A DNA stretch of 64,000 nucleotides from Candidatus Woesearchaeota archaeon (GTDB lineage Archaea > Nanobdellota > Nanobdellia > Woesearchaeales > GW2011-AR4), in assembly GCA_018303625.1 (NCBI GenBank), contig JAGVXV010000010.1, positions 13,411-77,410 of the forward strand, in the 5' to 3' direction. Numbering within the stretch: position 1 is the first letter of the stretch; every line of letters starts with the position of its first letter. Of the stretch, positions 2,390-44,637 are shown one piece after another. Below the pieces are notes generated by a model. That model was not told where the DNA came from, did not search any database, and was given only the letters and a program-made list of their open reading frames with translations. The translations under genes and the position numbers were made by a program.

Positions 2390-3202
2390 ATGGAAAAGAA
2401 CCAAGTAACTGAAGCGTTAAAGAGAGCAAAGGAAGTTTCTTCTAAAAGGAATTTTAACCAGAGTGTTGACCTAATCATAAACCTAAAAGGCTTGGACTTA
2501 AAAAAGCAGGAGCAGCAGCTGGACATATTTGCAAACCTGCATTACAGCAGGGGTAAAAAAATATCTGTCTGCGCCTTGATAGGAGCCGAGCTTCAGGAGC
2601 AGGCAAAGGCATGCGACGAGTTTATTCTTGTGGATGATTTCGCAAAATTCAGCAAGAAAAGTGAAATTAAGAAGCTGGCAAACAAGCATGATTTCTTTGT
2701 TGCGCAGGCAACAATAATGCCGAAAGTGGCTGCAACATTCGGAAGGGTTTTGGGCCCAAGGGGAAAAATGCCCAATCCGAAGATAGGCTGTGTCGTGCCT
2801 CCAAATGCCAACCTGAAGCCATTGTACGAGAAGCTGCAGAAAACCATGAGGATAATGACAAAAGGCAATCCTATTATACAGTGCTCTGTCGGGAAGGAGG
2901 ACTCCAGCGAGGAAGAAGTTGCAGACAATGCCATGACAATTTACAGCACGGTATTGCAGGCTTTGCCTAACGAAAAGCAGAACATAAAAGATGTTTACCT
3001 GAAGTTGACAATGGGCAAGGCAATCAAAATCGGGGAGAAGGCAGAGGAAGAGGAAACAGGTAAGAAGACCAGGAAAAAAGCAGGCAAAGAAAAGCCGAAG
3101 GAATCGGGCGAAGAGAAAAAAGCTGATGCGAAAAAAAAAGAAAAGCCGAAAAAAGAGAAAAAAACAAATGATAAACTCCCCAATAATGAAGATAAAAAAT
3201 AA
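2390..3202 (+). CDS. rpl1: 50S ribosomal protein uL1 with Lys-rich C-terminal extension
   Basis: The N-terminus 'ALKRAKEVSSKRNFNQSVDLIINLKGLDLKK' and 'MPKVAATFGRVLGPRGKMPNPK' are typical of L1. A GGAGG SD precedes the ATG. The roughly 50-aa K/E-rich tail is atypical. Confidence 0.9.
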   Translation: MEKNQVTEALKRAKEVSSKRNFNQSVDLIINLKGLDLKKQEQQLDIFANLHYSRGKKISVCALIGAELQEQAKACDEFILVDDFAKFSKKSEIKKLANKHDFFVAQATIMPKVAATFGRVLGPRGKMPNPKIGCVVPPNANLKPLYEKLQKTMRIMTKGNPIIQCSVGKEDSSEEEVADNAMTIYSTVLQALPNEKQNIKDVYLKLTMGKAIKIGEKAEEEETGKKTRKKAGKEKPKESGEEKKADAKKKEKPKKEKKTNDKLPNNEDKK

Positions 3203-3244
3203 TCAAAACTGGCAATTGCGGACTTAAAAAACAAAAATCATTGG

Positions 3245-4420
3245 ATGAAAATGGCTCACGTCGCTGAATATAAGAAGAGGATTGTGGAAAATATAGTAAA
3301 GCTCGCCAAGGAATATCCTATAGTCGGAGCTGTAAACATGGAAAACCTGCCGGCGCCCCAATTGCAGGCTATGAAGGCGCAGCTGAGGGGCAAGGTAGTC
3401 CTGGTAATGACAAAAAAAAGGCTCATAAAGATAGCCCTGGAAAAGCTGAAAAGCGAAAGAAAAGACATTGAAAAGCTGGAAGAGCACCTGAATGGCATGC
3501 CTGCCCTCATCTTCACGGGAGAAAGCCCCTTCAAGCTAAGCAGAATACTGCAGAAAAACAAGAGCAAGGCTCCTGCAAAAGGAGGCCAGATTGCTCCAAG
3601 GGATATTATGGTTAATAAAGGCTCCACAGGATTTGCCCCTGGCCCAATTATCGGGGAATTGGGAATGGTCGGCATCAAGACAGGAGTCGAGGGAGGGAAA
3701 GTCGCTGTCAAGGAGGATACAGTAGTTGTGAGGCAGGGCGAGCAAATAAAGCCAAAAGTAGCAGAGATTCTGACAAGGCTTGGCATAGAGCCCATGGAAG
3801 TAGGCCTGGATTTGATGGCTGCCTATGAAAATGGGCTGGTATACACCAGAGACATACTGACAATTGACGACCAGCAATACCTTAGCATGCTTAATAATGC
3901 GGCAAAAAGCGCATTTAATTTATCTTTCAACGCAGCTTATCCAACAAAGGACAATATCCAGCTGCTGATATCAAAGGCGTTTAATGACTCAAGGGCCTTG
4001 GGCTTAAGCCAGGAAATCATCGACAGCGGCATTGTCGAGGAATTGCTTGCAAAGGCTGAAAGGTCTCTGCTGAGCCTGAAAAATACTGCAAAAATAGATG
4101 TTCCTGAAAAAATTTCCCAGGACGGTAAAGAAACAGAAGCTAAAAAAGAAGCAAAAGCAAAGCACAAAAAGGCTGGAAAAATAAGCCATGAAACAGACAA
4201 AAAAGTTGAAGCTTTGCCGGAAGAAAAAGAGAAATTTCCACAAGAAGAAGTAAAGAAAGAGGAAGCAAAGGACGCAGTAAAAAACAAAGAAGAAGAGATT
4301 GTAAGAGAGGAACTGGATGAGCTGGAGCATGATATTCTGAAAAATAAAGAGGAAAAAGAGCGGGAGCAAATTGAGGATTTAACAAAAGAATTGGTAAGAA
4401 AAGGCACATTAAGAAAATAA
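3245..4420 (+). CDS. rplP0: Ribosomal stalk protein P0 (uL10) with long K/E-rich C-terminal extension
   Basis: Archaeal P0 N-terminal domain ('KKRIVENIVKLAKEYPIVGAVNMENLPAPQLQ', 'GMPALIFTGESPF'). Its position between L1 and P1 fits. The C-terminus ends '...LVRKGTLRK', not the usual GLxALFG peptide. Confidence 0.9.
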   Translation: MKMAHVAEYKKRIVENIVKLAKEYPIVGAVNMENLPAPQLQAMKAQLRGKVVLVMTKKRLIKIALEKLKSERKDIEKLEEHLNGMPALIFTGESPFKLSRILQKNKSKAPAKGGQIAPRDIMVNKGSTGFAPGPIIGELGMVGIKTGVEGGKVAVKEDTVVVRQGEQIKPKVAEILTRLGIEPMEVGLDLMAAYENGLVYTRDILTIDDQQYLSMLNNAAKSAFNLSFNAAYPTKDNIQLLISKAFNDSRALGLSQEIIDSGIVEELLAKAERSLLSLKNTAKIDVPEKISQDGKETEAKKEAKAKHKKAGKISHETDKKVEALPEEKEKFPQEEVKKEEAKDAVKNKEEEIVREELDELEHDILKNKEEKEREQIEDLTKELVRKGTLRK

Positions 4421-4455
4421 ATTGATTTTGATAAAATAAACTAGGAGGGGTATAA

Positions 4456-4761
4456 ATGGAGTACATCTATAGTGCAATGCTGCTGCATAAAGCAGGGCAG
4501 CAGGTTAATGAAGCGAATGTGAAGAAAGTGCTCGAGGCTGCCGGAGTCAAGGTAAATGATGCCAGGGCAAAAGCTTTGGTGGCAGCTTTGGAAGGAGTGA
4601 ATATAGACGAAGCTATAGAGAAGGCTGCTGTTCCTGTTGCGCCAGTGGCTCAAGCTGCTGAAGCAAAAGCTGAAAGCAAGGTTGACGAAAAGAAAAAAGC
4701 AGAGGAAGAAAAGAAGGGCGAGGAGCAGGCAGCGGCAGGCTTAGGGGCGCTTTTCGGTTAG
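4456..4761 (+). CDS. rpl12: Ribosomal stalk protein P1 (aL12)
   Basis: 101 aa starting '[30 protein letters not shown]' with an Ala/Glu-rich linker and the conserved C-terminal '[13 protein letters not shown]'. A strong SD 'AGGAGGGG' lies upstream. Confidence 0.9.
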
Positions 4762-4799
4762 TTTTTTTGTTCAAGAATGGGCAGGGAACGTGACACGGC

Positions 4800-7593: not shown

Positions 7594-8736
7594 ATGAGGG
7601 GCTTGGCAATAACTGAAAGGGGCATTGAGGATATCTGCGCCAAAGAGGTAAAGGAGCTGATAAATGCGGATGCTGAAATTAGAGAAAGCTGCGTGGCATT
7701 CAATGTTAAGAAACTGCCCGATTTATGCCTTTTGTGCTACAGGGCGCAGTCTGTAAGCCGAATTCTTTTTTTATTTGAGGATTTCAGCCTGGATGGTGAT
7801 CTTTTCGGGAAAATAAACGGGAAAATAGGGAAAGTTGACTTTTCCGGCTGGCTGGATAAAGGCACCAGCTTTGCCGTCAGGTGCCTGAAAGACGGAAATG
7901 TGGCAAGTGCTGCAGAAATTGAAAAGAAGGCAGGGGAATTTGTGATTGACAATATAAAAAAGAATAAAAAATACCGGCAGGAGGTTAATTTAATCCAGCC
8001 GGATGTGCTCTTTGTGGTTTATATTAATCAAGGCCGCTGCTATTTTGGGATTGATTTCTCCGGCTTTGATTTGAGCAAAAGAGGCTATAAGATTTTCATG
8101 CACCCCGCCTCATTGAAGGGAACCATAGCTTATGCCTTGGCAAGAATAGCGGAGTTTCGCAAAAAAGACTCTTTATTAGACCCTTTTACAGGCTCTGGCA
8201 TGATACCGATAGAAGCTTCGTTATTCGCATTGAATTTTCCGGTTAATTTTTACAATAAGGACAAGTTTGCTTTTTTGAAGTTAATTCCGCTTAAGAATTT
8301 TGATTTTGGCAGGTTCTTCAGGCAGGCAGATAAGAAGATAAGAAAGGAAAAATTGAGTGTTTATGGCTATGACAATTCCATGAAATTTGTGCAGTATGCA
8401 AAAAAGAATGCCAAAATCGCCGGGATTGACAAGCAGCTCAATTTCAGCAGGGTTGATGTCGAGTGGCTTGACATAAAATTCAAGAAGGGCAGTGTTGACA
8501 AAATCGCGGCTGACATGCCTGCGCTGTCAAAATACAATAAAGATATCGAGAAGGCCTATAAGGAGCTTTTTTACCAGTCGGACTACATATTAAAAAAAGA
8601 CGGCATTCTTGTTGTCTTGGTCCGGGATTTAAGCCTGATAAAGGGGCTTTGCGCGGAATACAATTTCAAGACCATCGAGCAAAGAAAGGTTTACAGCGGA
8701 AAGCAGGAGTTATTGGCAGTTAAGCTGAAAAAGTGA
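7594..8736 (+). CDS. THUMP-domain tRNA (guanine-N2) methyltransferase (Trm11/Trm14-like) with variant motif IV
   Basis: N-terminal ferredoxin-like and THUMP region, then a Rossmann methyltransferase with motif I 'LLDPFTGSGMIPIEA'. Motif IV reads 'AADMPALSK' instead of the (D/N)PP(Y/F) consensus. Confidence 0.65.
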   Translation: MRGLAITERGIEDICAKEVKELINADAEIRESCVAFNVKKLPDLCLLCYRAQSVSRILFLFEDFSLDGDLFGKINGKIGKVDFSGWLDKGTSFAVRCLKDGNVASAAEIEKKAGEFVIDNIKKNKKYRQEVNLIQPDVLFVVYINQGRCYFGIDFSGFDLSKRGYKIFMHPASLKGTIAYALARIAEFRKKDSLLDPFTGSGMIPIEASLFALNFPVNFYNKDKFAFLKLIPLKNFDFGRFFRQADKKIRKEKLSVYGYDNSMKFVQYAKKNAKIAGIDKQLNFSRVDVEWLDIKFKKGSVDKIAADMPALSKYNKDIEKAYKELFYQSDYILKKDGILVVLVRDLSLIKGLCAEYNFKTIEQRKVYSGKQELLAVKLKK

Positions 8737-9082: not shown

Positions 9083-9416
9083 CTACTTTGCAGAGGGACT
9101 GGCGCTTAGCTGTCGGCAGAGATACTAAATCTGCTTTGCAGATTTATTCAATCTTCTGCTGAGGAAAGTCCATCCACACCTGCCTTGCAGGAAGCAGCCA
9201 CTTTCGGAAGAAAGTTCCAGCAATGGAAGTAAACCGCACAGAAACGAGACCTCCCTGGCTAAGGATGATAAACGCGAAGTTTCCCGCGAGGGAAATGAGT
9301 TAACCTTTTGACGTTGCCAAGGAAAGGATGAAACGGCGAGCACTGGCTTGTGCAACCTTTACAGGGCTTAGTTAAATGCTAAGGCAGATGATCGCAACCT
9401 TATGTTGCAAAAAGCA
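9083..9416 (+). ncRNA. rnpB: RNase P RNA (archaeal), approximate ends
   Basis: A roughly 330-nt GC-rich island in AT-rich DNA with no credible ORF. It contains the universal P4 motif 'GAGGAAAGTCC' (about 9161-9171) and a CR-V-like 'ACAGGGCTTAG' (about 9361-9371). The 5' 'CTTTGCAG' pairs with the 3' 'TTGCAAAAAG' as helix P1. Confidence 0.7.
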
Positions 9417-9466
9417 TCTGACAGAAGATGGCTTATGCCAGTCCCATTTTTCAATATTCGGTTAAA

Positions 9467-12077: not shown

Positions 12078-12171
12078 GGTGGCCGTAGTTTAATGGTAGA
12101 ATAAGCGGCTGTGGATTGCTTTGTTTGCAAACAGAGCCCGCTTGGAGTGGGTTCGATTCCCACCGGCTGCC
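12078..12171 (+). tRNA. tRNA-His (GTG) with about 22-nt intron in anticodon loop; G-1 encoded
   Basis: Acceptor GTGGCCG/CGGCTGC, an extra 5' G-1 opposite discriminator C73 (a His identity element), U8A9, D-arm GTTT/GAAT, and anticodon stem AGCGG/CCGCT with loop CTGTGG|intron|. The T-arm is GTGGG-TTCGATT-CCCAC. Confidence 0.7.
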
Positions 12172-12258
12172 CTTTTTTATATAAAATGGCGGGTTCGTTT
12201 CAGCTTTGGTGATTTTTATTTTTTTCCGCAAGCTTTTTAAATACCCCCATTATCCTTA

Positions 12259-14619: not shown

Positions 14620-14642
14620 ACGCAACATATTCCCGCTCCCAT

Positions 14643-14760
14643 GCGGGGGTGGCAGAGATTCCGGGCCTTTAGCGGGGCTCGCTACTGCACCTGGCCAAAT
14701 GCGCAAGGTCGAGGGCCTTGTCCCTTAGTGGGTGCGCGTGTTCAAATCACGTCCCCCGCA
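14643..14760 (+). tRNA. tRNA-Leu (GAG), class II, with about 32-nt intron in the D-loop
   Basis: Acceptor GCGGGGG/CCCCCGC with A73. D-stem GCA/TGC with D-loop 'GAG|32-nt intron|CCTGGCCAAA'. Anticodon stem CAAGG/CCTTG with loop TCGAGGG. Long variable arm 'TCCCTTAGTGGGTGC'. T-arm GCGTG-TTCAAAT-CACGT. Confidence 0.7.
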
Positions 14761-16654: not shown

Positions 16655-19528
16655 ATGCTGGATTTCAACAGTATTGCCAAAAAATGGCAGGATAAATGGG
16701 AAAAAGAAAAAGTTTTTCGGGCTGAAGCAGATAAAAGGAAAAAATACTATGTTGCAATAGTTTATCCTTACATGAGCGGCCTTCTGCACCTTGGCCATTT
16801 GTTCACTTACACTTATTCTGAGGTCATGGCGAGGTACAAGAGAATGAGAAATTTCAATGTTCTGGTTAAGTTCGGCTTTCATTGTACAGGAACCCCGATA
16901 ATTGCAGCAGCGCAGCGCGTAAGGGAAAAAGAGCCGACGCAGATTGAAACTTTAAGGAAGATGGAGGTGCCTGAAAAGGAAATAACAAAATTTGCAAATC
17001 CGGAATACTGGTGCGACTATTTCCCAAAAGAGACATTAAAAGACATAAAGAGCATGGGCTTTGCCGTTGATGAAAGGTATACTTTCAGGACAACCTACTT
17101 AAATCCGCCTTACGACGCTTTTATAAGATGGCAATTCAACAGGCTTAAGGAAAAAAGCTATATAAAAAAAGGCAAGCACCCCGTTATCTGGTGCCCAAAA
17201 GACAATGTGCCGGTAGGGGATCATGACCGCTCAGAGGGGGAAGGCGAAACTCCGCAGGAATTTTTATTGTTCAAGCACAAATTAGAGGGGGGCAGGTATA
17301 TTTTAAGCGCTACATTAAGGCACGACACCATTCTGGGCATAACAAACCTGTTTGTCAATCCGGATGTAGATTACTGCGAGGCAAAAGTCAATAGCGAAAA
17401 GTGGATATTGGGAAAAAAAGCCATAGAGAGGCTGAATGAGCAAGGCTATGATATTAAAATAATAAAAAAAATTTCCGGCATTGACTTGATAGGCAAAAAA
17501 ACCGGGGAATTTGACAGAAGCAAAGTCCTGATTCTTCCGGCAACATTCCTGAAAGCTGATGTTGGAACAGGCATTGTGCATTCTGTCCCTTCAGAATCCC
17601 CGGACGATTTAATAGCATTGAGGGAAATACAAAACAACGGGCAGCTGTGCAAAAAATATAACCTAAACTTTGAGGAAGTCAAAAGTATAAAGCCAATAGC
17701 AGTATTAAACACGCCTGAATATGGGGATATTGCTGCCGAGGCAATGCTGAAGAAATACAATATAAATTCGCAAAAGCAGCAGGAGCAGCTGGAAAAAGCA
17801 AAGAAAGAATTATACAAAATAAGCCATTACACAGCCACTTTAAACCATTTGTATAAAGATGCGTTTTCTGTCAATCTGGAAGGAAAGAAGGTAGAGGAAG
17901 GCAAGGATATAATCAAAAAAGAGCTGATTGAAAAGGGCTTTGCGGTTAAATACTACGAGCCGACGGGCAAAGTTATTTGCAGATGCCTGACAGAATGCAT
18001 TGTCAGGATTGTTGAAGACCAGTGGTTTATTGAGTATAATGATGCTAAGTGGAAGAAAGCAGCGCATGAATGCCTTGAGAATATGAAAATATACCCCGAG
18101 ATGGCAAGAAAGCAGTTTGATTATGTCGTAGACTGGCTTGGCCACTGGGCATGCACAAGGGAATTTGGCTTAGGGACAAAGCTGCCCTGGGATCTTAAAT
18201 GGGTTATTGAGTCGCTGTCAGATTCCACAATACAGATGGCATACTGCACAATTGCAAAATACCTTGAGCACCCCAAGGATTACGGGCTTAGGATTGACAG
18301 GCTGAATGACGAATTTTTTGACTTCGTTTATCTCGGAAAAGGAAATTCTGCAGCGATAGAAAAATCAACCGGAATTTCAAAAAAAATGATTGAAACAATG
18401 AGGAAGGATTTTGAGTACTGGTACCCTTTCGACTTCAGGAATTCGGCAAAGGACCTGCTGCAAAACCACCTCGCATTCTGCATTTTCAACCATGTTGCAC
18501 TGTTTCCTAAGAAATACTGGCCAAGGGCATTCATAATAAACGGCAGGATTATGGTAAACAATGAAAAGATGTCGAAGTCGAAAGGCAATTTCTTCACGAT
18601 GAGGGAGCTCTATGCCAAGCACGGCCCGGATATTGTAAGGCTAGCCGCGGCAAATGCCGGGGAAGGCATGGACGACGCGAACTATGACATGGAGTTTTTG
18701 GAAACAGCAAAGAGAAAATTAGAGGAACTGCATGCTTTCATAAACGGCAATTATGACAAAGGCAGGTCGACAAGCCTTGCAATAGACAGGTGGTTTAAGG
18801 GAAAAATCAACGAGACAATAAGAAAAGTGACAGATGCCATGGAAAACATGCTCTTCAAGTCAGCAGTGCAATATTCATTCCTGGACATGCAGAGGGAATT
18901 GAAATGGTACTTAAGAAGGACAAGCAACAATCCAAACAAGGCCTTGATAAACTTGTTCATAGAAACCCAAATAAAATTATTGGCTCCATTCGCGCCTCAT
19001 TTCTGCGAGGAATGCTGGAATATTATAGGAAAAAAATCCTTTGTGTCAAATGAAAAATGGCCTGAAGCTGATTTAAAGTCCATCAACATGGAACTGGGTT
19101 ATATGGAAAACTTCATAATGGGCACTTTGAGCGACATCAGGGAGGTTATAAGGCTTGCAAAAGTTGAAAAGCCCAAGTCAATAAAACTATTTGCCAGCCC
19201 GTTGTGGAAATACTCCCTTTTCAAAGACGCCAACAGGCTGATTGGCGAAGGCAAAAATACCAGGGATATATTAAATGATATAATGGGCAGCAGTTCCTTT
19301 AAGAAGCACGGAAATGAAATCATGAAATTCCTGCCAAAGATGCTCAATGCAAGAAAAATCCCGAATGCGGCATTAACGCAGCAGCAGGAGCTTTCAGCGC
19401 TAAAAGAATCGCTGGATTTTTTCACAAGAGAATTTGGCTGCGAAATCACTATAACGGATGCCGATAAAAGCAGCGAGCAAAAAGCCGGGCAGGCAATGCC
19501 AGGAAAAGCTGCAATTTTAATACAATAA
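16655..19528 (+). CDS. leuS: Leucyl-tRNA synthetase (archaeal type)
   Basis: 957 aa with the class I 'HLGHLFTY' (HIGH) and 'KMSKSKGN' motifs, an editing-domain insertion, and a C-terminal tRNA-binding extension. Confidence 0.95.
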   Translation: MLDFNSIAKKWQDKWEKEKVFRAEADKRKKYYVAIVYPYMSGLLHLGHLFTYTYSEVMARYKRMRNFNVLVKFGFHCTGTPIIAAAQRVREKEPTQIETLRKMEVPEKEITKFANPEYWCDYFPKETLKDIKSMGFAVDERYTFRTTYLNPPYDAFIRWQFNRLKEKSYIKKGKHPVIWCPKDNVPVGDHDRSEGEGETPQEFLLFKHKLEGGRYILSATLRHDTILGITNLFVNPDVDYCEAKVNSEKWILGKKAIERLNEQGYDIKIIKKISGIDLIGKKTGEFDRSKVLILPATFLKADVGTGIVHSVPSESPDDLIALREIQNNGQLCKKYNLNFEEVKSIKPIAVLNTPEYGDIAAEAMLKKYNINSQKQQEQLEKAKKELYKISHYTATLNHLYKDAFSVNLEGKKVEEGKDIIKKELIEKGFAVKYYEPTGKVICRCLTECIVRIVEDQWFIEYNDAKWKKAAHECLENMKIYPEMARKQFDYVVDWLGHWACTREFGLGTKLPWDLKWVIESLSDSTIQMAYCTIAKYLEHPKDYGLRIDRLNDEFFDFVYLGKGNSAAIEKSTGISKKMIETMRKDFEYWYPFDFRNSAKDLLQNHLAFCIFNHVALFPKKYWPRAFIINGRIMVNNEKMSKSKGNFFTMRELYAKHGPDIVRLAAANAGEGMDDANYDMEFLETAKRKLEELHAFINGNYDKGRSTSLAIDRWFKGKINETIRKVTDAMENMLFKSAVQYSFLDMQRELKWYLRRTSNNPNKALINLFIETQIKLLAPFAPHFCEECWNIIGKKSFVSNEKWPEADLKSINMELGYMENFIMGTLSDIREVIRLAKVEKPKSIKLFASPLWKYSLFKDANRLIGEGKNTRDILNDIMGSSSFKKHGNEIMKFLPKMLNARKIPNAALTQQQELSALKESLDFFTREFGCEITITDADKSSEQKAGQAMPGKAAILIQ

Positions 19529-24649: not shown

Positions 24650-25585
24650 TTGGGGGTAAAAATTTCAGCTATAATCTTCTTAGGCACTGGCGGCGACACT
24701 TATGTTGTAGGCAAGCAGATAAGGGCTTCCGGAGGCATTATCCTCCAGATAAATGAAAACCAGTTCCACATTGACCCTGGACCTGGCAGCCTGCTGATGG
24801 CAAAAGAAGTTGGCGTTAATCTAAGGGCAAATACCGCCTTGTTTGTAAGCCACAATCATTTGAACCACTGCAATGATGTCAATGCTGTTATTGACGCAAT
24901 GACTTACGCCGGCTTTGACAAAAAAGGGGTTTTGATAGCAAATAACACTGTGGTAAACGGCAGCCAAAGCTACAGGCCAATTTTGCAGGAATACTATAAG
25001 AACTGCCTGGAAAGGTACATTGTGCTGAATGCAGGCCAAAAAGTGGGCATCAACGAAGTTGAGATCATGGCCTTGAAGGCAAGGCACTCCGAGGAAAATG
25101 CCATCGGCTTCAAGTTTTTCACGCCGCAATTCACTTTAAGCTACAGCGGCGACACGAAATACAATGCGGAAATCGCCGATCAATACCAGAACTCCAATAT
25201 ACTGATTTTAAATGTCCCTTACTTAAAAAAAGAAAAAGACAATGACGGCTTAAGCAAGGAAGATGCAGTAAAAATAATAAATGCTGTAAAGCCCAGACTG
25301 GCGATAATAACCCATTTTGGAATGGATTTTGTGAAAGCAGATCCTTTGTATGAAATCAGGGAAATACAAAAGGAGACAAGCTGCCAGGTAATAGCGGCAA
25401 AAGACGGAATGGTTGTAAATCCCTTAAGCTACTCTGTTGAGCAGGGCCAAAGAACGCTGATTGGATTTAAGGAGGAAAAAAGAGGGGTTCATGTAAGGTT
25501 CGAGGAAAAGGTAAAGGAAGTTGATGAGATTCTCGAGGAGAAGCAGACAAGCTTAGAGGAAGCGGAAGATAAAGAATTTCAATAG
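24650..25585 (+). CDS. Metallo-beta-lactamase-fold hydrolase
   Basis: 'FLGTGG', 'VSHNHLNHCND' (HxHxDH-like), 'SGDTKY' and 'ITHFGMD' metal-ligand motifs. It has a TTG start and an acidic C-terminal tail. Confidence 0.6.
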   Translation: MGVKISAIIFLGTGGDTYVVGKQIRASGGIILQINENQFHIDPGPGSLLMAKEVGVNLRANTALFVSHNHLNHCNDVNAVIDAMTYAGFDKKGVLIANNTVVNGSQSYRPILQEYYKNCLERYIVLNAGQKVGINEVEIMALKARHSEENAIGFKFFTPQFTLSYSGDTKYNAEIADQYQNSNILILNVPYLKKEKDNDGLSKEDAVKIINAVKPRLAIITHFGMDFVKADPLYEIREIQKETSCQVIAAKDGMVVNPLSYSVEQGQRTLIGFKEEKRGVHVRFEEKVKEVDEILEEKQTSLEEAEDKEFQ

Positions 25586-29800: not shown

Positions 29801-29873
29801 AGCCCCGTGGTGTAGCGGTCAAGCATCGTGCCCTTTGGAGGCATGGACGGCAGTTCGAATCTGCCCGGGGCTA
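29801..29873 (+). tRNA. tRNA-Gln (TTG), intronless
   Basis: 73 nt. Acceptor AGCCCCG/CGGGGCT with A73. Anticodon stem GTGCC/GGCAT with loop CTTTGGA. T-arm GGCAG-TTCGAAT-CTGCC. Confidence 0.8.
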
Positions 29874-36905: not shown

Positions 36906-36982
36906 ATGCCCCTACTGGGTAGCGGAAATCATAGATTTCCTGAACCCATCGGGTCATTCGTTTTGCTCATGCCCCTACTGGG
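36906..36982. repeat. Direct repeat of the tRNA-Arg 3'-terminal 14 nt (att-like), enclosing a short hairpin
   Basis: 'ATGCCCCTACTGGG' occurs at about 36906-36919 and again at about 36969-36982, which is the actual 3' end of tRNA-Arg on the minus strand. The roughly 50-nt spacer contains the hairpin GGAAATC-ATA-GATTTCC. Confidence 0.45.
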
Positions 36983-37042
36983 AATCGAACCCAGGTCTTA
37001 AGGTCCGCAACCTCATATTCTGATCCACTAAACTATAGGGGC
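36970..37042 (-). tRNA. tRNA-Arg (GCG), intronless
   Basis: 73 nt on the minus strand. Acceptor GCCCCTA/TAGGGGC. Anticodon stem TGAGG/CCTTA with loop TTGCGGA. T-arm CTGGG-TTCGATT-CCCAG. Confidence 0.8.
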
Positions 37043-44362: not shown

Positions 44363-44490
44363 TGGGCCTGCCAGGATTTGAACCTGGGACCATTCTCGGC
44401 TTATTGGCTCTCGATGTCTAACAGCTGGTTATCAGTTTCGCCGCCTCTTCTGGAGACTCGAGCATTCTAACCAGACTGAACTACAGGCCC
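44363..44490 (-). tRNA. tRNA, 128 nt, with a roughly 36-nt anticodon-loop intron and extra nucleotides in the variable region; anticodon probably CTC (Glu) but uncertain
   Basis: Minus strand. Acceptor GGGCCTG/CAGGCCC with A73. An intact D-arm GTTC-AGTCTGGTTA-GAAT. Anticodon stem CTCGA/TCGAG enclosing 43 nt. T-arm CCAGG-TTCAAAT-CCTGG preceded by 22 nt. Confidence 0.55.
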
Positions 44491-44533: not shown

Positions 44534-44637
44534 CGCCCCTGACCAGACTCGAACTGGTGATCTTACGGTTACAGCGCAAAGCTAACAGCCGTACGCTCTA
44601 CCTATTGCTCCACTCATAGTGTCTAAGCTACAGGGGC
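44534..44637 (-). tRNA. tRNA-Asn (GTT) with two introns (D-loop about 20 nt; anticodon loop about 13 nt)
   Basis: Minus strand. Acceptor GCCCCTG/CAGGGGC with G73. D-stem GCTT/GAGC with an interrupted D-loop 'AG|intron|GGTA'. Anticodon stem TACGG/CCGTA with loop CTGTTA|intron|A. T-arm ACCAG-TTCGAGT-CTGGT. Confidence 0.6.

Follow-up and report, generated by a model that had tools for sequence, protein, structure and literature searches.

A predicted splice-motif intron at D-loop position 15/16 of a woesearchaeal tRNA-Leu(GAG) gene

The DNA analysed here, called the window throughout, is a stretch of 64,000 nucleotides (nt) from a Candidatus Woesearchaeota archaeon (contig JAGVXV010000010.1). 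At 14643–14760, on the forward strand, it carries a tRNA-Leu(GAG) gene interrupted in the D-loop, very probably a functional woesearchaeal gene with a protein-spliced intron of the bulge–helix–bulge (BHB) type at tRNA position 15/16. The gene starts 23 nt past the rpoD stop codon and ends 16 nt ahead of rpl18e, within an operon of the order S13-S4-S11-RpoD-[tRNA]-L18e-L13-S9-RpoN. Rfam searches detected an archaeal RNase P RNA and an archaeal signal recognition particle RNA in the window. The relatives retrieved with RpoD are all Woesearchaeota/Nanoarchaeia (DPANN) metagenome-assembled genomes, the top species-representative match being 70% identical. On these sequence grounds the host is a Woesearchaeota (DPANN) archaeon, and the DPANN attribution suggested by an earlier, sequence-only reading of the locus fits. 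Identical RpoD was also found on contigs from many samples, and the ENA contig ERZ4903072 k141_2219553 matches the window identically through the tRNA.

The interrupted tRNA-Leu(GAG) gene and its splice motif

The locus has a class II tRNA layout. Read 5′ to 3′ on the + strand, it runs GCGGGGG UG GCAG AG, then the insert ATTCC...CTGCA(C), and continues with (C)CTGGCCAAA TGC G CAAGG TCGAGGG CCTTG ... GCGTG TTCAAAT CACGT CCCCCGC A. Specifically, we recognised an acceptor stem (GCGGGGG/CCCCCGC), an anticodon arm (CAAGG-UCGAGGG-CCUUG, with GAG at 14711–14713), a long variable arm, a T arm (GCGUG-UUCAAAU-CACGU) and a discriminator A.

ARAGORN called three other tRNAs in the window and none at 14643–14760. 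The Rfam tRNA model was likewise silent at this locus, both at its gathering threshold and with the limit relaxed to E≤10 (600-nt slice) or E≤5 (whole window), a silence that we attribute to the D-loop insert, which defeats the general model. Once 31–33 nt following any position from 12 to 19 were deleted, ARAGORN called tRNA-Leu(GAG) in every reasonable register. In addition, a covariance model (CM) trained on 11 tRNA-Leu orthologues without introns, taken from related genomes, matched 14643–14760 over its full length (1–86) with 85.4 bits and an E-value of 6e-17, accommodating a D-loop of 40 nt versus 8 in the model; this was its sole match across the 64 kb. The ARAGORN call after excision and the CM score bear out the proposal that a tRNA-Leu(GAG) with a D-loop insert lies here.

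The 5′ exon, at 14643–14657 (+), comprises tRNA positions 1–15, that is the 5′ strand of the acceptor stem, U8 G9, G10–G13, A14 and G15. The predicted 3′ exon, at 14691–14760 (+), holds the rest of the D-loop (CUGGCCAAA), the 3′ D-stem strand UGC, the anticodon, variable and T arms, the 3′ acceptor strand and A73. The 118-nt precursor would thereby be shortened to 85 nt; the discriminator A is at 14760 and CCA is not encoded. Excision between the predicted cuts leaves a complete canonical tRNA, as judged by the ARAGORN call and the orthologue CM, and the spliced product keeps A14, G15, G18G19, C48 and the T-loop (tRNA numbering).

To describe the motif we numbered the precursor as window position minus 14642. 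Every possible excision was scanned for one geometry, namely a 4-bp helix whose strands are each followed, on the 3′ side, by a 3-nt bulge that is cut two nt in, the place of the cut being taken from canonical 37/38 introns, in which the first two anticodon bases lie within the central helix (PMC4090602). The only register sparing A14, G15 and G18G19 has its cuts at 15|16 and 48|49, and predicts a 33-nt intron at 14658–14690 (+). Its central helix (H) pairs the exon strand GCAG, positions 10–13 of the 5′ D-stem (14652–14655), with the intron strand CUGC (14685–14688), which mimics the 3′ D-stem strand; all four pairs (G10-C46, C11-G45, A12-U44 and G13-C43) are Watson–Crick. The 5′ bulge, A14-G15-A16, occupies 14656–14658, with a predicted cut after 14657, and the 3′ bulge, A47-C48-C49, occupies 14689–14691, with a predicted cut after 14690. 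Each helix strand thus has a 3-nt bulge of its own on the 3′ side, so that the two bulges stand on opposite strands, the second being bounded on one side only. Between them, at 14659–14684, lies the region of the inner helix (h′), made of the pair U17-A42, a 2x2 internal loop and a hairpin of 7–8 bp at 14662–14668/14675–14681 (20–26/33–39).

The BHB conformer with its cloverleaf arms has a free energy of -43.7 kcal/mol, and the inner hairpin alone one of -10.5 kcal/mol. Two other inner helices were tried and rejected: 28–32/38–42, which would stack on H, and 17–21/31–35, gave -38.0 and -36.7 kcal/mol, respectively, i.e. 6–7 kcal/mol worse than 20–26/33–39. A strict hBHBh′ motif has both an outer (h) and an inner helix; the fold found here has the inner one, broken by the 2x2 loop, and is on sequence grounds a relaxed BHB motif of the HBh′ type. 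A BHB-like fold, whose absence had been named beforehand as refuting the intron, is accordingly present in relaxed form. When the insert was shuffled 20,000 times with its dinucleotide composition preserved, a 4-bp helix in the exact register arose 236 times (1.2%), and in 10 shuffles (0.05%) it was accompanied by an inner hairpin no less stable than the native one.

The 15/16 site in related tRNA genes

In most related genomes the slot after rpoD is also occupied by tRNA-Leu(GAG), and in two by tRNA-Leu(AAG); one relative (L159) has no tRNA there. The state of these orthologues varies widely, genes with several introns being counted under more than one of the following sites. Twelve genes are intronless (L004, L008, L011, L012, L015, L018, L019, L023, L027, L031, L032 and L033). 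An insert after G15 is found in three, i.e. the window gene, L002 and L021. About 11 are interrupted on the 3′ side of the D-loop, at ~20b/21 (L009, L010, L014, L016, L022, L024, L026, L029, L030, L157 and L158), the commonest D-loop intron site among these woesearchaeal genes. Further introns lie at ~26–30 (L007, L017, L020, L157 and L158) and at 37/38 (L002, L003, L007, L010, L013, L021, L022 and L160). L157 and L158, the nearest relatives retrieved, whose RpoD is 89% and 85% identical to that of the window, have their tRNA-Leu introns elsewhere and none at 15/16. By visual comparison the window exons show about three differences from those of L017; the RpoD proteins of the same pair are 62% identical.

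A metagenome scan with the pattern GGGTGNCRGAGN{19,49}TGGYCAAA, too unspecific for the size of the collection, returned 120 loci, among which only L054 (anticodon-loop intron) and L127 (15/16) were tRNAs. L127 is a tRNA-Leu(UAG) gene with a 15/16 intron, an anticodon-loop intron and a T-loop intron.

A second gene of the window shares the placement, namely tRNA-Asn(GUU) at 44637–44534. The D-loop placement in this gene had been pointed out in the sequence-only reading, and is confirmed here, on the minus strand, by an 18-nt insert after G15 (44622–44605). The gene has in addition a 13-nt insert in the anticodon loop, at about 44582–44570, for which no strict BHB register was found. The D-loop motif of tRNA-Asn is compact (H GCUU/GAGC, bulges AGA/AAU, h′ CAC(U)/(G)GUG). 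Among shuffles of this intron, 3.5% reached the helix and 0.1% both helix and hairpin. Rfam gave a sub-threshold tRNA match to this gene, at 44541–44613 (23.1 bits).

The comparison of 15/16 introns rests on five independent cases: those of the window tRNA-Leu, the window tRNA-Asn, L002, L021 and L127, the last three being tRNA-Leu genes on metagenomic contigs. The window tRNA-Leu(GAG) combines H GCAG/CUGC with bulges AGA and ACC and an h′ of 1 bp, a 2x2 loop and 7–8 bp, in 33 nt. L002, also Leu(GAG), has H UCAG/CUGA, bulges AGA and AAC and an h′ of 12 bp in 37 nt, while L021 Leu(GAG) has H CCGG/CUGG, bulges AGA and AAU and, as h′, a hairpin of -6.2 kcal/mol in 32 nt. In the 21-nt intron of L127 Leu(UAG) we found H GCAG/CUGC, bulges AGA and AAC and an h′ of 5 bp, and in the 18-nt intron of the window tRNA-Asn an h′ of 4 bp. 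All five have positions 10–13 as the exon strand of H and AGA as the 5′ bulge, and in all five the outer helix is limited to 0–2 bp. Across these five introns the pairs of H change with pairing always kept: pair 10 is G-C, U-A or C-G, pair 12 is A-U, U-A or G-U, and pair 13 is G-C or U-G. Moreover, cutting two nt into each bulge in L002, L021 and L127 gives the D-loop lengths of intronless orthologues; for example, spliced L021 would read GCCGGAG|UGGCCAAACGG, to be compared with GCCGGAGUGGUCAAACGG in the intronless L019. The placement of a non-canonical intron at D-loop 15/16, as originally suggested, is therefore supported: the BHB register restores a normal tRNA, four further examples exist, and eleven orthologues have no intron at exactly this place.

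The same cannot be said in full of the further suggestion that these introns form a lineage-specific class. A blastn-short search for sequence kin of the Leu and Asn introns in the window and all related loci retrieved returned self matches only, and the L127 intron shares with the window Leu intron only AUUCC at the 5′ end; the similarity beyond the exon-matching helix that would mark a family of mobile or transposed introns was not found. The closest relatives lack a 15/16 intron in both genes. For tRNA-Asn, whose orthologues sit downstream of an FKBP gene (77% identical in the relatives), L164–L167 and L173 have no D-loop intron, and L172 has one at another site. The 15/16 placement thus recurs and is not conserved, and 'recurrent insertion site' fits it better than 'intron class'.

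Other features were observed at these loci. In L005 (~2961–3900) and L006 (~3804–4770), about 0.9 kb separates rpoD from tRNA-Leu and holds an open reading frame (ORF) with a LAGLIDADG-like 'GDGS' motif, with partial copies of the tRNA 5′ end upstream (GCGGGGGTG... and GCGGGGGGTCAGA...); a mobile element, or else a large intron with tRNA-Leu as its target, is a possible explanation. The tRNA-Leu(GAG) of L009 (~3825–3958) contains, besides a 17-nt D-loop intron, a perfect 27-nt tandem duplication (AAATGCACTAGGTTGAGGGCCTAGTCC x2) covering the 3′ D-stem strand and the anticodon arm. Duplication may have created an intron here, unless the gene is a pseudogene or the repeat an artefact of assembly. 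The L172 gene (ENA ERZ27245685 k141_1259626, ~1365–1555), downstream of the FKBP gene, is a tRNA-Asn(GUU) with five inserts, of 29, 23, 16, 20 and 30 nt after reference positions 20, 30, 37, 42 and 59. Without them a 73-nt tRNA accepted by ARAGORN remains, and an exact 4-bp BHB helix is in register in four of the five. Three introns is the stated maximum per archaeal tRNA gene (PMC3239211), and our literature search for archaeal tRNA genes with four or five introns retrieved no case. A weak LAGLIDADG_3 gene adjoins this tRNA-Asn.

In the window itself, next to tRNA-Asn, Rfam reports a 128-nt tRNA at 44363–44490 (-) with 46.5 bits, which we read by hand as tRNA-Ile(GAU) with three inserts and which ARAGORN miscalls as tRNA-Ser(AGA). 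Its inserts of 22 nt at ~30/31 (h′=5) and of 14 nt in the anticodon loop both have an exact BHB helix; for the third, ~17 nt at ~45/46 in the variable region, no strict BHB was found in the three-BHB parse. The tRNA-His(GUG) gene at 12079–12172 (+) has a 22-nt anticodon-loop intron whose motif is of the strict hBHBh′ form, the outer helix measuring 6 bp and the inner one 4 bp. Thus four of the six tRNA genes of the window are interrupted (His, Leu, Asn and Ile), those for Gln (29801–29873) and Arg (36970–37042) being uninterrupted. A home-made SPLITS-like scan, in which each BHB candidate was excised and ARAGORN re-run, and which misses genes with at least three introns, was applied to the window and 290 kb of related loci; in the window it found no hidden tRNAs past Leu, Asn and Ile.

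Weighing the alternatives and the proposed splicing route

Several observations weigh against a functional, endonuclease-spliced tRNA-Leu(GAG). The anticodon loop, UCGAGGG (14709–14715), has C33 in place of the near-universal U33. Because the intronless orthologues L008 and L012 carry the same loop (the remaining ones have UUGAGGG), C33 looks like a tolerated or lineage-specific variant and not damage. The outer helix is essentially absent, being confined to G9-U50 and U8-G51, the inclusion of which worsens the energy from -43.7 to -38.6 kcal/mol, and the inner helix begins with a lone pair followed by the 2x2 internal loop. When positions 8–52 are folded locally, the BHB conformer lies 1.8 kcal/mol above the minimum free energy (MFE), and a rival extension of H by A14-U41 and G15-C40 is locally 1.8 kcal/mol better. 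Folded without constraints, the entire precursor has an MFE structure other than the BHB, and its z-score (-1.43) is unremarkable; we do not take this structure as refuting the intron, since the enzyme-bound conformer need not equal the MFE. The strict register also leaves the D-loop AG-CU-GG, 1 nt below the AG-CCU-GG of the nearest relatives L017 and L020. Finally, no domain of the splicing endonuclease EndA or of the ligase RtcB occurs among the Pfam-labelled called genes between 3.8 and 64 kb of the window, so that a broad-specificity enzyme is assumed here; a tblastn search of the window and related loci with an EndA query gave no match.

Four other explanations were considered. The same intron could end 1 nt earlier, the 3′ cut falling after A47 (14689), and thus span 14658–14689 (32 nt) and leave the mature D-loop AGCCUGGCCAAA of the closest relatives; GGCAGAG would then be joined to CCUGG, and with a 33-nt intron to CUGGCCAAAUGC. 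A 32-nt insert is what alignment to the intronless orthologues and the CM return, L017 and L020 have AGAGCCTGGCC, and bulges of 1–4 nt in relaxed BHB motifs are known for broad-specificity enzymes (PMC3239211). However, such a cut would fall one nt into one bulge and two into the other, whereas the two-nt rule yields the expected junction in L002, L021, L127 and tRNA-Asn, and the two-nt 16–17 region that it leaves is that of a standard tRNA D-loop; orthologues with one nt there exist (L018, L019, L027 and L031). We regard the 32-nt version as rather unlikely. The extent given by the sequence-only reading, 14658–14689 or about 32 nt, agrees with the alignment and holds to within 1 nt; by the BHB register the most likely length is 33 and not 32 nt, the 3′ junction being uncertain by 1 nt. 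A different BHB motif, with the helix G6–G9/U41–U44, a 4-bp outer helix from acceptor positions 2–5 and 48–51, cuts at 11|12 and 46|47 and a 35-nt intron, ranks second by flanking-helix pairs (h=4, h′=1), behind an implausible 98-nt excision, and ARAGORN still calls tRNA-Leu(GAG) from its product. It needs a melted acceptor stem, however, and leaves a D-loop without A14 and G15 (GCA|CCUGG); its register is absent from L002, L021, L127 and tRNA-Asn, which have 15|16 in common, and we hold it to be highly improbable.

It is also very unlikely that the insert is retained, the locus being a decaying pseudogene or a tRNA with a hugely enlarged D-loop and CUC/CUU being read by another tRNA-Leu gene. 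The rejection of the locus by ARAGORN and Rfam and the unusual C33 would suit such a case, as would a view covering 64 kb of the genome and the relative L159 without a tRNA at the site. But the stems and the conserved tRNA nucleotides are all intact (CM 85.4 bits), C33 recurs in the intronless L008 and L012, the splice motif stands in the correct register, as did that of 1.2% of shuffles (0.05% with the hairpin), and the same design with compensatory changes is seen in four other genes. A D-loop of 40 nt is not known from any functional tRNA. As for a remnant of a mobile element or self-splicing intron, outside the reach of the endonuclease, the ~0.9-kb inserts with a LAGLIDADG-like ORF beside tRNA-Leu in L005 and L006 could point that way, and group I introns are reported from archaea including Woesearchaeota (PMC6125680); yet 33 nt is far below the size of group I/II ribozymes, which effectively excludes this origin, and the insert has neither repeat copies in the window or related loci nor a match to an Rfam intron family.

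For a BHB intron at 15/16, the following route can be proposed. In the precursor, G10 C11 A12 G13 of the 5′ D-stem would pair with the intronic decoy CUGC (14685–14688) and not with their mature partner, forming the central helix. A14-G15-A16 and A47-C48-C49 would bulge on opposite strands, each 3′ of its own helix strand, and the inner helix (U17-A42 plus the hairpin 20–26/33–39) would close the intron. We infer that such a precursor is transcribed and cut by the tRNA splicing endonuclease EndA two nt inside either bulge, at exactly the phosphates that follow G15 (14657) and C48 (14690). The exons would be joined by an RtcB-type ligase and the D-stem would re-pair with U23 G24 C25, giving the 85-nt class II tRNA with the D-loop AGCUGGCCAAA. 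In all five 15/16 cases the 3′ D-stem strand has such a decoy in the intron, and the D-arm would consequently stay mispaired until splicing.

As no outer helix can arise from positions 8–9, the motif is of the HBh′ type and would need an EndA of broad substrate specificity. Relaxed motifs are cut by the epsilon2 EndA of ARMAN-2 (PMC3239211), and the (alpha-beta)2 EndA of Aeropyrum pernix excises a D-loop intron without cofactors, which the Archaeoglobus fulgidus enzyme hardly does (PMC3241643). DPANN lineages have many disrupted tRNA genes, and their EndAs are of the alpha4, (alpha-beta)2 or epsilon2 form, mostly with an 'L3' insert, a feature that goes with a greater number of such genes (PMC5829648). 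The HBh′ motif without outer helix thus implies a broad-specificity EndA in the host lineage.

Relation to known introns and genomic setting

The tRNA-Leu intron is a member of the known archaeal BHB family at an unusual position, with no new mechanism, and what is known of archaeal tRNA splicing is unchanged by the Leu and Asn findings. Non-canonical BHB introns of Thermoproteales, other Crenarchaeota, Nanoarchaeota and ARMAN-2 (PMC4090602, PMC4033280, PMC3239211) are likewise short, with a 4-bp helix and 3-nt bulges. They occupy varied tRNA positions, often with relaxed HBh′ or hBH motifs, in genomes with many disrupted tRNAs and sometimes several introns per gene; the window intron fits this description. 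The sites listed in these reviews are 20/21, 22/23, 25/26, 29/30, 30/31, 45/46, 53/54, 56/57 and 59/60; 15/16 may be catalogued already. Unlike the reviewed cases, the window gene has a woesearchaeal host and a central helix in which the 5′ D-stem strand pairs with a copy of the 3′ strand located in the intron.

Among individual genes, the pre-tRNA-Thr(UGU) of A. pernix is likewise a tRNA of normal make-up apart from a BHB intron in its D-loop; EndA by itself excises that intron in vitro, at a lower rate than one in the anticodon loop (PMC3241643). That intron has a canonical BHB and is served by a heterotetrameric (alpha-beta)2 EndA with a Crenarchaea-specific loop, whereas the window intron lacks the outer helix. 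A relaxed HBh′ motif in the D-loop is known from Methanopyrus kandleri pre-tRNA-Glu(UUC), located on the 3′ side at 20b/21 and not on the 5′ side at 15/16 as in the window; the M. kandleri gene may carry a second, canonical intron (PMC5829648), an arrangement resembling that of the window tRNA-Asn. Canonical 37/38 introns, one of which is found in the window tRNA-His, have the same motif geometry and presumably the same enzymes, but use the anticodon stem as outer helix, for which the 15/16 introns have no counterpart.

Because orthologous tRNA-Leu genes in relatives are intronless or have introns at other sites, we tentatively suggest, as a possibility short of an even chance, that Woesearchaeota tRNA genes gain, lose and re-position endonuclease-spliced introns unusually fast, and that the 5′ D-stem strand with A14 G15 is a place where introns have landed repeatedly, in tRNA-Leu and tRNA-Asn independently of each other. 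If true, such turnover points to an active BHB-intron insertion mechanism in DPANN archaea that is not yet known. The tRNA-Leu locus beside rpoD offers a natural syntenic series for dating intron gain and loss. In addition, the Leu, Asn and three-intron Ile genes of the window are invisible or half-visible to ARAGORN and Rfam, which may contribute to DPANN genomes appearing tRNA-poor. Nanobdellota genomes reportedly have 26–54 tRNAs each, with some amino acids 'missing' (2026 preprint, 10.64898/2026.05.13.725050), and that DPANN would hold further disrupted tRNA genes still to be identified was foreseen by Kaneta et al. (PMC5829648).

Upstream of tRNA-Leu, the A/T-rich AAAATAAA, centred ~27 nt before the gene, could be a TATA box, a candidate by inference only. 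The rpoD–tRNA spacer often contains TCCC(C/G), as in the leaders of L008, L009, L013, L014, L022 and L157 and in the window (14631–14647), a motif complementary to GCGGGGG, the 5′ strand of the acceptor stem; CCCGC...GCGGG in the window could allow the leader to pair with the acceptor strand in the precursor.

Further genes of the window bear on tRNA metabolism. Two products are candidates for tRNA processing by sequence similarity: at 24650–25585 (+) a metallo-beta-lactamase fold with weak similarity to RNase Z (55.5 bits, below the cut-off of 293) and also to Pfam Anti-Pycsar_Apyc1, and at 7594–8736 (+) a THUMP methyltransferase like Trm14 (192 bits, below the cut-off of 280). The RNase P protein Rpr2 (Pfam) is encoded in the window, and the RNase P RNA maps to 9095–9445. 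On the same strand as tRNA-Leu(GAG) and 1.9 kb downstream of it, the gene at 16655–19528 (+) encodes an archaeal leucyl-tRNA synthetase, scoring 1059.6 bits with NF008957 (cut-off 677) and 1012.7 bits with TIGR00395.

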